In this document: piece after piece, positions 18,158 to 63,730 of the stretch
How positions within the stretch are numbered: position 1 is the first letter of the stretch
Layout of the letters: each line of letters opens with the position of its first letter
Assembly (NCBI GenBank): GCA_024279475.1
Contig: JAJRRM010000124.1
Location: forward strand, 3,942-67,941
DNA length: 64,000 bases
From: Alphaproteobacteria bacterium
GTDB lineage: Bacteria > Pseudomonadota > Alphaproteobacteria > 16-39-46 > JAJRRM01
Direction of reading: 5' to 3'
The notes under the pieces: generated by a model
Databases searched by the model: none
Seen by the model: only the letters and a program-made list of their open reading frames with translations
What the model was told of the DNA's origin: nothing
Made by a program: the position numbers and the translations under genes

Positions 18158-18345
18158 GGTCCTGTTGCAAAAATAAAATTAGATAAAAAGGTCTCGTTAT
18201 TTAGAGCAGTTTAACTCGTGTAAATACCGAAAGTTTGATTAATAAGACGTGCTTCTCCCATGACATTTTTTTCATGCATTCATGCCAGTAACTGACTTTT
18301 CTTAAACATACGCATTGTCTCAAAAAATAAGAGGCGCAAAAGTTT
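18158..18345 (+). mobile_element. IS6-family (IS26-like) remnant: terminal inverted repeat GGTCCTGTTGCAAAAATAAAAT plus about 180 bp of non-coding IS end
   Basis: Terminal repeat matches the IS26-type GGCACTGTTGCAAA; internal segment gtaaataccgaaagtttgattaataagacg recurs at 56.9 kb and, inverted, at 40.1 kb. Confidence 0.6.
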
Positions 18346-18400
18346 AAATTATATATAAAAACATATATACATTCATACATATATATAATAACATATAAGT

Positions 18401-18679
18401 ATGTCTAAAATATATGGAATTATAAAAGAGAGAAGAAAAACACTCGGCTTAACGCAGAAAGTCGTTAGTGAAAAACTTTCTATACCCCAAAGCCATTTCT
18501 CTAAAATAGAATCAGGCCTGTCTGACACAAGAATGTCAACTATTGTGGATATTTGCCGTGTTTTAGAGTTAGAAATGACTTTAGTGCCTAATAATAAGAT
18601 AAGAGTTGTAAGGGCTCTAATGGAAGACTCTTATGCTCGTATGGATAAGCCGGCATGGGTGCCTGATGAAGAGGCTTAA
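18401..18679 (+). CDS. hipB: XRE-family HTH antitoxin HipB-like
   Basis: 92 aa; HTH LGLTQKVVSEKLSIPQSHFSKIESG; 4-bp gap to the hipA-like gene. Confidence 0.7.
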   Translation: MSKIYGIIKERRKTLGLTQKVVSEKLSIPQSHFSKIESGLSDTRMSTIVDICRVLELEMTLVPNNKIRVVRALMEDSYARMDKPAWVPDEEA

Positions 18680-18682
18680 AAA

Positions 18683-19879
18683 ATGAAATCTGTATTAGAT
18701 ATTTTTTTGTATGAGGAAAAAATAGGGTCTATTAATTCACTCGGTGGTGAAAGGTCTATTTTTGTTTTTGATGACGACTATATTAAAGACAAAGATAGAA
18801 ACACCCTCAGTCAGTCATTTTATAATGTGCATGGAGAACTTATAACGAATACAAAGCCAACACATGTGCAGCTTTCCTCTTTTTTTTCAAACTTATTGCC
18901 AGAAGGGTCTTTAAGAGAGCTTGTTGCCAGAAAAAATGATATTAATTTAAAACGAGAATTTTGGCTAATGAGATCTCTTGGTGGAGACATGCCCGGTGCC
19001 GTTACGGCTCAGATAAATAATGAAGGTGAAACTCCTTCTAGCTTTGTTCATAGTGATAATAGTAGAGAAGAAGAAAATCTAAAGTTTTCACTAGCAGGGA
19101 TGCAGCTGAAATTTTCAACACTGATGGAGCCTTCAGGAAGGATCACCTTTCCTTCAAAAGGAATAGGAGGAGACTGGATTGTAAAGATGCCTTCTTATAC
19201 TTTTGACGGTGTTCCAGAAAATGAGTGGTCTATGATGCAATTGGCCCAGAAAATAGGGTTGGATGTTCCTAAAATAAAACTTTCGCCAACTTCTTCAATT
19301 TTCAATCTGCCTATATCGCGAAAAAAAAATCAGGAAGACTCCTTAGTTATTAAGCGTTTTGATCGTGAAGATGGTAAAAAAATACACATAGAAGATTTTG
19401 CACAAGTATTTGGTGTGTATCCAGCTAATAAGTATAAAAAAGTAAGTTATGGAAACATAGGTAAGATGATTTATGAGGTGGCAGAGGAATCTTCTTTTAT
19501 AAGGTTTATTAAACAGCTTATTTTATCTATTTGCATAGGAAATGCCGATTTACATCTAAAGAATCTCTCTCTTATTTACCCAAACAGAAAAGATGCACTT
19601 CTTTCGCCGGCTTATGATCTTGTCTCAACGATAGCTTATATAGATGACAAGAAGCTCGCTTTAACTTTATCTGGTGAAAAGGATATGACAAAAATAACGG
19701 TTGAACATTTTATTGAACTGGCTAACCGGGCGAATTTTCCTATTAAAAGGATGAAAGCCATTGTTCTAAAATCGAGCGAAGAAATAAGAGGTGTTTGGAA
19801 TAAAGAAAAAAAAGAGTTTCCAATGATAGACTCACATAAAAAACAGATAGATCGACATATGAAATTTATCAAAATTTAA
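18683..19879 (+). CDS. hipA: HipA-family serine/threonine kinase toxin
   Basis: 398 aa; catalytic motif IGNADLHLKNLSLIY matching the HipA D-x-H-x-K-N signature; upstream XRE partner. Confidence 0.78.
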   Translation: MKSVLDIFLYEEKIGSINSLGGERSIFVFDDDYIKDKDRNTLSQSFYNVHGELITNTKPTHVQLSSFFSNLLPEGSLRELVARKNDINLKREFWLMRSLGGDMPGAVTAQINNEGETPSSFVHSDNSREEENLKFSLAGMQLKFSTLMEPSGRITFPSKGIGGDWIVKMPSYTFDGVPENEWSMMQLAQKIGLDVPKIKLSPTSSIFNLPISRKKNQEDSLVIKRFDREDGKKIHIEDFAQVFGVYPANKYKKVSYGNIGKMIYEVAEESSFIRFIKQLILSICIGNADLHLKNLSLIYPNRKDALLSPAYDLVSTIAYIDDKKLALTLSGEKDMTKITVEHFIELANRANFPIKRMKAIVLKSSEEIRGVWNKEKKEFPMIDSHKKQIDRHMKFIKI

Positions 19880-20051
19880 TCATATGGTAGAAAAATTATG
19901 GAAAAAGTAGGAGAGGAAAGAAAATCTGTTTTAGATCAACCTAAAAAAAGGAGGCACAAAAAGTGATTTAATTTAGATAGAACGACTGATAAAGTTTACT
20001 AAGGAGTTTTTTTAAGGTCTATAAAAATTAGATTTATAGAGAACTATGGTG

Positions 20052-61796: not shown

Positions 61797-61813
61797 AACT
61801 TAGCACAAGAATT

Positions 61814-61948
61814 CTAAGCAGAAAGACGAGTACGGTTTTTAGCGCGTCGGGCTCTAATAATATTACGACCGCCTACTGTGCTCATACGAGAACGAAATCC
61901 GTGGCGACGAGCACGAATAATACGGCTAGGTTGAAAAGTACGCTTCAT
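61814..61948 (-). CDS. rpmH: 50S ribosomal protein L34
   Basis: Translates to [44 protein letters not shown]; below the 60-aa cutoff of the ORF track. Confidence 0.85.
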
Positions 61949-62348
61949 GGAAAACTCCATTTCCAGTTAAATTAAGAGGCTAATATCAAATCTATAAGAC
62001 ATTTAAGGGGTGCTCGTCAAGATATTTTAAGGTCTTGTAGAATAATTAAATAAAATCACTCCTAATTTGTAGAGATTTCTACATTCTCTTAAGATAGAAT
62101 AACAACATCTTTTTATAGGTTGTGGTGCAAAGTTCAACCTGACACTTTTGTGCTTAAAAAATGAAGTAATGGCATAATGTTTCTTTAGTGAAATTGTTAA
62201 TAAAAGGTATAAATTATAGGATTTGACTTAAAAAATAAATAACCATAAATTTTTCAAAGCTGTGTTTCTTAAACTATCAAAGAATGGTAGAAATGTTTTA
62301 TTCACTGAAGATATTACTCTATGTTTTTTGTTTAGGTTCTGAATATGG

Positions 62349-63524
62349 CTAGCAAACAATATCTTCTATAGAAATAGTTTTTATAGGCTGTATAGGAGTA
62401 TTGAGATGATAACGAGTGCTCTTCTTTTCCCCTGTTCTGCGAAGAGCTCCCTTATTAACAAGATCTCTTAAGTCTCTTGTTATGCTCGCAGATGAAGCTC
62501 CAGCTCTAGTGATAGTTGCATAGTTTTTTGCACTAAGTCCTCCTTGAAAAGCATCAGGACCTTCTTTAAACATTCTTATTAAAGCTTTTTCTTGCCGTTC
62601 ATTTATTTGTCCTTTTACTTTATCTAATAAAGTCACTTTATGTAATAAGAACTCTATTTGTGAATGGCATCTTTTTTGAGCTTCAATAGCAGCAGAGGCA
62701 AACCAGAGCAGCCAATCTGTAATATTTAAACTTCTACTGGCAAGATTTAACTCTTGGTAATATTTTTTGCGACGTTTTAATAGCGTTCCAGAAAGAGTTA
62801 TAAGAGTTGGAGTTACGGAAGCATGGGCAAGTATCTTTTCTGAAATGGCTCTTCCTATACGACCATTTCCATCTTCAAACGGGTGAGTGCTTTCAAACCA
62901 AATATGTGCTATTCCTGCACGAGTTAAGGTTGGAAGCTTACTCTTTCCTTTAGGTTCCGTTTTTTCCACCCATTTAAGGAATTTATTCATTTCTTCTGGT
63001 ATTCTGTTAGCTGGAGGTGCTTCGAAATGTACTTTCCTCGCATAGTCTGGCCCTGAAACTATCTGCATAGGTTCTTTGAGACTACGATACATACCTATAT
63101 TCGTTAGGTCATGTCTCCCTAGAAGTATCATTTTATTCCATAGACAAAGTGTTTCGTGAGAAAGCGGGGTGTGTATATTTTTATAGAGATCTACTATCAT
63201 TTCTGAAATACCTGCTTCAGCTGGAGCAATCTTACGGGGAAGAGTAGAAAGCCCAAGATGCTTACAAATAGAGGACTGAACACTGTCTCTATCAAGAATT
63301 TCTCCCTCAATAGCGGAAGTTTCTATAGCATCAGAAGTCATTAAACTTATTAAAAACGTATCCTTGTCGTCTTCCTTCAAATGCTTAGAAAGACCTATAG
63401 AGAATCCTTGACCTTCTATAAAAAGTTCTTCAGCCTTTTTTAGTCTATCTGCGTCCCAAACAAATTTAGGCCATAAAGGATTTTGCCAATTCCATTCCAT
63501 GATTGATATCTTTCTTTTTATCAA
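62349..63524 (-). CDS. Fic-family protein (AMPylation/adenylyltransferase fold)
   Basis: Canonical Fic motif HPFEDGNGRIGR; N-terminal MEWNWQ..WP.F.WD (true start probably the internal Met at about 63500); C-terminal winged-helix-like tail. Confidence 0.8.
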   Translation of the reverse strand: MIKRKISIMEWNWQNPLWPKFVWDADRLKKAEELFIEGQGFSIGLSKHLKEDDKDTFLISLMTSDAIETSAIEGEILDRDSVQSSICKHLGLSTLPRKIAPAEAGISEMIVDLYKNIHTPLSHETLCLWNKMILLGRHDLTNIGMYRSLKEPMQIVSGPDYARKVHFEAPPANRIPEEMNKFLKWVEKTEPKGKSKLPTLTRAGIAHIWFESTHPFEDGNGRIGRAISEKILAHASVTPTLITLSGTLLKRRKKYYQELNLASRSLNITDWLLWFASAAIEAQKRCHSQIEFLLHKVTLLDKVKGQINERQEKALIRMFKEGPDAFQGGLSAKNYATITRAGASSASITRDLRDLVNKGALRRTGEKKSTRYHLNTPIQPIKTISIEDIVC

Positions 63525-63617
63525 TCACATTATAGCATATTTATGATTAATAAAAAAATGGTTTTATAGATCAATTAATATAGGTCTCTATAATAAGCAG
63601 CATCAGATCCTTCTTAT

Positions 63618-63730
63618 GGGCTCTGTTGCAAAAATAAAATGATCTGATTCAGATCTATTATTAAAATATTTCCCTTGAAAATTTAGAAGGAGCTCCTCTA
63701 TACTCTCTTAGGCACATTGCAGGGCTGAAC
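63618..63730. repeat. candidate IS6-type MITE or solo terminal repeat (GGGCTCTGTTGCAAAAATAAAATGA ... CATTGCAGGGCTG)
   Basis: Left repeat is a clear match to the other copies; the right end is only a partial inverted match. Confidence 0.4.

Follow-up and report, generated by a model that had tools for sequence, protein, structure and literature searches.

The IS6 family of insertion sequences (IS) is defined by GG tips, cTGTt and caaa motifs, 8-bp duplications, cointegrates, pseudo-compound transposons and arrays (PMC7986276). Its members form replicative cointegrates, carry out conservative IS-targeted recombination, and tend to build arrays with passenger genes and to give rise to adjacent deletions and inversions (PMC7986276). 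[quoted passage not shown] Here we describe decayed IS6-type copies (relics) in a 64,000-nucleotide stretch, the window, of an alphaproteobacterial genome (contig JAJRRM010000124.1, assembly GCA_024279475.1). The window is part of a 68,153-bp contig of a draft assembly, and the copy counts given below hold for the window only. The relics, about ten in number, are very probably the dead remnants of one unnamed IS from an IS6100-like clade, an ordinary member of the known family.

We assigned the relics to IS6 because of a Pfam match, the motifs of the termini and the annotation of the closest relatives as IS6 or IS6100. The pseudogene of the longest copy, relic A, when stitched together (56915-57502, minus strand), matched PF13610 (DDE_Tnp_IS240) with E = 9.5e-43 and 146 bits, the cutoff being 27. 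The transposase motifs WRVDE, INTDK and NNIVESD were recognisable; the encoded protein was a DDE transposase of the IS240/IS26 type, here in a broken frame (family range 213-254 aa). Relic A spans positions 179-839 of an 839-position nucleotide profile, in a family about 700-890 bp long whose relatives measure 803-889 bp. The ends of the relics read GG(C/T)(C/T)CTGTTGCAAAAA and occur as inverted pairs in relics B and M; they are GG-tipped short terminal inverted repeats (14-20 bp) with cTGTt and caaa motifs. The intact relatives, ~830 bp in length, have the same GG(C/T)(C/T)CTGTTGCAAAAA termini and a 237-aa DDE transposase. Among 5.8 billion proteins, 6628 were IS6-type homologues, and the source names, where given, read IS6 family transposase. 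The best of them, the intact 237-aa P0001 from NCBI data, is 83-88% identical to relic A by aligned block, while the homologues ranked after the closest proteins reach 67% or less. An earlier, preliminary description of this DNA had called the repeats IS26-like. Membership in the IS6 family stands, given the DDE_Tnp_IS240 match, the GG-tipped repeats and the annotated relatives, but the relics are nearer to IS6100 than to IS26. Target-site duplications of 8 bp were not found, as the flanks never match at 7 or more of 8 positions, either within or between relics. Their absence is unsurprising and does not speak against IS6 membership, because the copies are old and because cointegrate and conservative events separate the duplications.

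The relics were detected by their terminal repeat and by a profile. The repeat GGYCCTGTTGCAAAAA, allowing up to two mismatches, had 10 matches in the window versus 0.08 expected from shuffles, and 10 were reached in 0 of 100 shuffles. Repeat finding grouped the copies into two families, left-end and right-end. The nhmmer profile was based on 43 intact IS6100-clade elements of 803-889 bp from other sources (metagenomes, one IS6100 copy and a Paracaedimonas plasmid), all with the same termini. It recovered the main relics, with E-values from 2.3e-124 (A) to 1e-5 (the right part of E). Relic M (54638-54721) was recognised solely through its two inverted terminal repeats. The combination of the terminal repeat and a subterminal TAAAAT, scanned across species-representative genomes, was found on five unrelated contigs. 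One of the repeat matches, at 42134, was set aside as a chance hit, since it lies within conserved core genes collinear with the relatives and its invariant TGT core is broken.

The preliminary description had itself raised the idea that the motif is a host intergenic repeat of the repetitive extragenic palindromic (REP) type, without a transposon link, as might be expected if transposase fragments did not accompany most copies. The solo ends at 16513 and 56819, which carry no transposase sequence, would suit such a repeat. In six copies of the window, however, transposase-derived sequence is contiguous with the repeat, in the right position and orientation, and intact elements of the IS6100 clade, taken from unrelated sources, have this motif as their terminal repeat. 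An Rfam scan of the window returned four tRNAs only, and no Rfam family overlapped the relics. The REP-like explanation is refuted by the Pfam match, the tblastn mapping and the profile matches, and we regard it as extremely improbable. The relics of the transposable element are the following.

Relic A, 56855-57503, minus strand: long transposase pseudogene, aa 37-236 and right repeat; profile 179-839, E = 2.3e-124.
Relic A2, 57504-57565, minus strand: second transposase C-terminal fragment (..MRMFKK..W.NE); 76% over 54 nt to C, E = 1e-5 to 5e-5.
Relic B, 39812-40192, plus strand: 381-bp two-ended internal-deletion derivative, aa 1-10 joined to 160-237.
Relic C, 18158-18324, minus strand: right repeat and last 36 codons (aa 202-237); profile 672-839, E = 8.8e-18.
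Relic D, 44037-44147, plus strand: left repeat, 5' leader and first 8-9 codons (MNDFKGKH), then cut; profile 1-110, E = 3.5e-7.
Relic E, 55867-56043, plus strand: left repeat, leader, MNDFKGKHYQ joined to VKYLNNIVE*DH...; aa 1-10 and 160-~186.
Relic F, 63619-63726, minus strand: ~108-bp two-ended derivative with degenerate left repeat AGCCCTGCAATG and right repeat GGCTCTGTTGCAAAAATAAAATGA.
Relic M, 54638-54721, minus strand: 84-bp miniature element, right-end-like arm at left and left-end-like arm at right.
Solo fragment, 56819-56846, plus strand: terminal-repeat fragment GGTCTTTGTTTCAAAAAATAAAATAATAAG, direct, 36 bp ahead of the right repeat of relic A; 91% over 22 nt to D.
Possible solo end, 16513-16541, plus strand: left terminal repeat GGCTCTGTTGAAAAAAAAATGAT with 2 mismatches, 310 bp from tRNA-Gln; low confidence.
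Probable small internal fragment, 39125-39201, plus strand: profile 135-178 (39125-39168), E = 0.0028; transposase aa 21-37.
Weak candidate, 37443-37505, strand not assigned: piece resembling the transposase 3' end, with CCCCCTGTTTCAATAAATAAAATCA; 83% over 35 nt to A, E = 0.001.

All seven copies of the preliminary description are present, at or within a few bases of the positions it gave, and five relics are additional to them as probable or possible (16513-16541, which falls outside the range it covered, 39125-39201, 56819-56846, 57504-57565 and, weakly, 37443-37505). Some of its details changed. The copy placed at 39811-40290 is real, but its right terminal repeat ends at 40192 and not at 40290; the complete MITE is indeed two-ended, with a size of 84 bp (54638-54721) instead of 85 bp. 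The full 25-nt consensus in the title of that description is exact in two copies only (44037, 55867).

Relic A has recognisable DDE residues but at least five frame changes as well as stops, and it lacks the left end and the first 36 codons. With P0001 as the query, tblastn split it into at least six segments, in frames -1/-3/-2/-3/-2/-1. Relic A2 joins relic A at its aa 37, through a microhomology of the GAAAG type. Judged from the sequence, both this fusion and the doubling of the terminal repeat at 56819/56855 resemble what is left of tandem direct copies. Relic C contains an in-frame stop and is truncated inwards, with hipBA following (tblastn 75%, E = 4e-12). Relic M, located between the radical-SAM and S9-peptidase genes, is 90% identical over 30 nt to the left end of B and 74% over 65 nt to the right end of C. 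The S9-peptidase open reading frame (ORF; 54775-55896) reads into the left repeat of relic E, such that its last 9 codons and the stop are IS-derived.

Of the smaller pieces, the possible end at 16513-16541 is 88% identical over 26 nt to F (E = 0.011), and its profile match (1-29, E = 3.6) is not significant alone. The 39125 fragment shares 82% over 34 nt with the Paracaedimonas IS (E = 0.003) and, by tblastn with P0001, 65% over 17 aa, and is followed at 39177 by the repeat-like CTGTTGCAAAAAAT without a GG tip (profile E = 2.7), which could be a nested IS end or decayed GVEVD-coding sequence. This fragment stops at profile position 178 and relic A begins at 179, on opposite strands and 17 kb apart; the two could be one copy split by inversion or by nested insertion. 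The 37443-37505 piece had no match in the 43-element profile search of the window.

Several relics share an internal deletion. In B and E, profile position 101 (..CAT TAT CAA, H-Y-Q) runs straight into position 558 (CAA GTG AAA TAT, Q-V-K-Y). Relic B matched the profile at 39812-39913 (1-101, E = 2.8e-7) and 39911-40192 (558-839, E = 2.9e-42), and relic E at 55867-55968 (1-101, E = 4.5e-7) and 55966-56010 (558-602, E = 1e-5). Relic B consists of the left repeat, the 5' leader, MNDFKGRHYQ joined to VKYLN..., the C-terminus and the right repeat, with stops and frameshifts, whereas E is cut at ~aa 186 beside the pirin gene. The preliminary description had reported the start MNDFKG(R/K)HYQ joined to the C-terminal part of the transposase. 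This is correct for B and E, where it runs into VKYLNN..(D/Y)H, but D stops after MNDFKGKH; the DHGKLK that it quoted fits B (YHGKLK) better than E (DHRKR). Relic F carries the junction of B and E as well, and in it the stretch between ..SDH and the final 22 nt of the right end has also been deleted; its degenerate left end is at 63726. It retains a leader remnant and (D)F(K/Q)GKYFNN..SDH (aa ~157-175) joined straight to the right repeat, and it is 82% identical over 44 nt to E (E = 5e-7), while the profile match at 63619-63677 is only marginal (E about 0.03). Relic M retains only ~40 nt of each end. The existence of internal-deletion derivatives and of two-ended miniature elements, as first described, is therefore borne out: B (381 bp), M (84 bp) and F (~108 bp) combine inverted IS ends and small size with the lack of a functional ORF, which is the structure of a MITE.

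KHYQ occurs twice in the intact P0001, at aa 7-10 and aa 160-163, and consequently the deletion lies between two short direct repeats. An internal deletion between these K-H-Y-Q stretches produced a two-ended element of ~380 bp without transposase, and further deletions led to the miniature elements of 84 bp and ~108 bp. A single non-autonomous ~380-bp derivative copied in trans may be the ancestor of B, E, F and perhaps D, which would then descend from a true IS6-derived MITE family; alternatively, full-length copies each lost the middle in place. The identical junction of B and E (profile 101 to 558), the fit of F and the stop of relic D at the same point favour common descent, and IS6-derived MITEs are known, though rare, with two in ISfinder. 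A comparable 159-bp two-ended IS6-type miniature came up by chance, in the scan with the terminal repeat, in a Clostridiales metagenome-assembled genome (L004, JBDMZA010000615.1, positions 168-326); it reads GGTTCTGTTGCAAAAAATA ... TTTTTTGCAACAGAACC, and a further solo end lies 46 bp beyond. On the other hand, the junction falls within the K-H-Y-Q/H-x-Q repeat of intact relatives, which makes independent recurrent deletions plausible, and the B-E pair is no closer than either copy is to the full-length-derived A. Moreover, target-site duplications were not found in the relics, E is truncated, and the resolution of cointegrates needs homology, which, from the behaviour of IS6 elements, would be inefficient for very short elements. 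We consider descent from one mobile derivative to be finely balanced and lean slightly against it.

Compared pairwise, the copies were 77-85% identical at their left ends, 80-81% at their right ends and 76-82% in the junction region. The range of 76-85%, without clear grouping, indicates that the copies are old. The values fit a single burst, after which each copy underwent neutral change of roughly 10%. The preliminary description had suggested a recently host-restricted lineage; decay on this scale argues that the burst, for its part, was not recent. The past expansion and subsequent decay proposed in the preliminary description agree with this even spread, and with the absence of IS6 sequence from ~37 kb of each of two relatives. 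Its view of the relics as dispersed homology for rearrangement did not hold up well. Apart from D and E, which have 39 nt in common, no two relics share an exact match of more than 19 nt. Efficient RecA-dependent recombination needs roughly 25 nt or more of perfect identity. Given this threshold and the short exact matches, the relics are poor recombination substrates today, and they are most likely inert.

No intact transposase ORF was found in the window, as the preliminary description had stated, but the statement does not extend to the whole genome: the window comes from a draft contig, and the NCBI data include the full-length P0001. Identical multicopy IS usually break contigs in draft assemblies. 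The IS may still be present intact, its near-identical copies lying where contigs of the draft assembly end or where repeats were collapsed. In line with this, the window derives from a 68,153-bp draft contig, and the three proteins that come closest, the full-length P0001 and the truncated P0002 and P0047, are all NCBI singletons from contigs of 6-13 kb, with the 83-88% of P0001 to relic A by block far above the next best. P0001, however, is without any link to the same assembly. We take a surviving intact copy to be a real possibility, albeit a somewhat doubtful one.

For gene order, we compared the window with two related metagenomic genomes, using ~37 kb from each. After 100%-identical entries from the 68,153-bp contig itself, these genomes provided the next-best matches of the YidC (73%) and YfiH (53-58%) encoded in the window. 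Four segments, 40297-44035, 44211-53236, 57736-61174 and 61504-61961, are collinear with both relatives at about 72% nucleotide identity. No IS6 sequence was found by tblastn, blastn or the profile in the ~37 kb from each relative. Wherever collinearity breaks in the window, a relic is present. The spacer between the epimerase gene and rsmB measures 258 bp here, with relic D, versus 117 bp, IS-free, in the relative L011. The 4.1-kb block 53460-57567 has the order radical SAM, M, S9 peptidase, E, pirin, solo end, A and A2, and the relatives have a 760-850-bp spacer instead. Homologues of the radical SAM, S9, pirin and Fic genes were not found at the corresponding loci of the two relatives. On the left, collinearity ends at 40297, ~100 bp from relic B, in agreement with the earlier placement of the distal boundary of the island at a relic; beyond this point the relatives have lpxB, a gene that the window lacks. 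On the right, it ends at 61961, followed by the Fic gene and relic F (1.7 kb beyond), while the relatives continue with glutaredoxin. The rpmH-rnpA-yidD-yidC-engB cluster (61419-62000) is kept in comparison to L006/L008, its glutaredoxin-side neighbour here being a DUF4172/Fic gene (62349-63524).

To the left of B, a 24-kb accessory region reaches tRNA-Gln (16129-16202), and the core genes recO, glmSU, murJ, rpsD and atp lie to the left of it. Within it are hipBA, genes for an NB-ARC/TPR protein and for a Sel1 protein, a pair of large paralogues and one integrase-like gene. Near its proximal side are relic C and the possible end at 16513, and relic B is at the distal edge. No repeat of the 3' end of tRNA-Gln that could serve as attachment site of an island was found.

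The alternation of relics with single accessory genes, together with their position at breaks of collinearity, is best explained by the behaviour of IS6/IS26 elements. The IS multiplied in this alphaproteobacterial (Holosporales-like) chromosome, and its copies have since decayed by substitutions, frameshifts and truncations. If it behaved as IS6/IS26 elements do, cointegrate formation and IS-targeted recombination would have built the arrays in which IS and passenger genes alternate, and may likewise have caused the rearrangements that B (plus) and F (minus) mark.

Several observations weigh against this interpretation or limit it. Without 8-bp target-site duplications, no individual transposition event is reconstructable, and no full-length copy is available from this genome. 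Relic F and the pieces at 16513 and 37443 have marginal statistical support on their own. The passenger genes have an ordinary G+C content, overall and at third codon positions (GC3), like that of core genes, and when plasmids were queried with the S9 peptidase and with the 4.1-kb block, the only matches were to distant homologues or to the IS part. With ordinary composition and no plasmid counterparts, delivery of these genes by the IS is something we only infer. Finally, the YidC proteins of the two relatives are 77% identical to each other versus 73% to this genome; the relatives are slightly closer mutually, so that one ancestral loss could mimic a gain here.

The last point bears on a rival view, in which the relatives lost ancestral genes for radical SAM, S9 peptidase, pirin and Fic, and the IS merely inserted into dispensable DNA without bringing these genes in. 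Their composition is the same as that of core genes, and if the relatives are sister lineages, a single loss suffices. Nonetheless, each gene is parted from the next by an IS relic, the 760-850-bp spacer of the relatives contains no remnants of these genes, and IS alternating with single passengers is the signature of IS6/IS26 arrays. We therefore find ancestral presence rather unlikely and prefer assembly by the IS. A bolder extension of the latter is that the ~380-bp H(Y)Q-junction derivative was a truly mobile MITE family in an uncultured Holosporales-like symbiont, and that, with its parent IS, it built the single-gene passenger arrays and the rearrangements delimiting a 21.7-kb collinear block. 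We put this forward as speculation that is probably not correct; if true, it would mean that chromosomes, and not only clinical resistance plasmids, are shaped by the IS26-style accretion of translocatable units.

Other features of the accessory DNA were also observed. A hipB-like helix-turn-helix gene and hipA (toxin-antitoxin kinase) lie at 18401-19879, immediately inside relic C. At 21410-21584, a 175-bp element with perfect 30-bp inverted repeats TATTTAATCTCCCATACGTTGGGATAGAAA abuts the start of the ORF 20052-21410 (minus strand). It occurs once in the window, has no relation to the IS6 ends, and may be a different miniature element or a long hairpin. The gene at 25758-29255 encodes a 1165-aa NB-ARC/STAND NTPase with TPR_12/TPR_10 repeats of about 42 aa, in the lowest-GC stretch of the window (gene GC 26%). 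It is followed by a five-repeat Sel1 protein (29434-30552), and both are eukaryote-like repeat proteins typical of protist symbionts. Two large paralogous ORFs (30852-33734 and 34166-37441; 960 and 1091 aa) have upstream regions that are 88% identical; a Pfam scan of the two proteins gave no convincing domain, with one weak sub-threshold match. A third copy of their 5' coding segment, 95 nt long and 89% identical, is located at 37506-37600, where the integrase-like ORF 37595-38641 is about to begin. The gene content (Sel1, NB-ARC/TPR, Fic, IalB-like), along with the closest IS being in an amoeba symbiont, is only a hint of a host-associated life style.

The relics are markers of past rearrangement and of accessory DNA (hipBA, NB-ARC/TPR, Sel1, Fic, S9 peptidase and pirin), and are of practical use in the annotation and comparative genomics of this lineage. 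They reveal no new mechanism or class of element; the phenomenon is ordinary, and the IS is an unnamed member of its family. They add a chromosomal, non-clinical case of IS6-family arrays and miniature derivatives.

Among known elements, IS6100 belongs to clade I of Harmer & Hall 2019 (PMC6807381), which is clade b of Varani et al. 2021 (PMC7986276). Its termini are GGCTCTGTTGCAAAAAT, and relic F has the identical 17 nt. The layout is also alike, with a left repeat, a leader of ~70 nt, a single DDE transposase and a right repeat ~55 nt past the stop. The IS6100 transposase (254 aa) is about 65% identical to the 237-aa P0001, and IS6100 is 880 bp long compared to ~830 bp for the relatives of the relics. 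Unlike IS6100, the copies in the window are all defective and AT-rich, with a subterminal TAAAATGA.

The closest annotated relative is the plasmid IS of Ca. Paracaedimonas acanthamoebae, a Holosporales amoeba symbiont (CP008939, CP008940). It is 829 bp long, has the termini GGCCCTGTTGCAAAAA, the same as the relics, and is 72.5% identical to P0001 at the protein level and ~67-70% identical to relic A at the nucleotide level. The latter value is too low for it to be the same IS as that of the relics. It is multicopy, being present at 12 places on one plasmid, and in contrast to the relics its copies are intact and plasmid-borne.

Like MITEBth2 and MITEHarch3, relics B (381 bp), F (~108 bp) and M (84 bp) are two-ended and without transposase. 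They differ from these MITEs in showing no evidence of amplification as a unit and no target-site duplications, and in their host group and parent IS. The IS26/IS257 pseudo-compound transposons and the IS26 translocatable-unit arrays differ in turn from the relics, which are fragmentary and in mixed orientation, with passengers that are not resistance genes and a mechanism that we infer. In both, nonetheless, IS alternate with single passenger genes, and the likeness extends to the remains of tandem copies and to the association of the relics with rearrangement break points.

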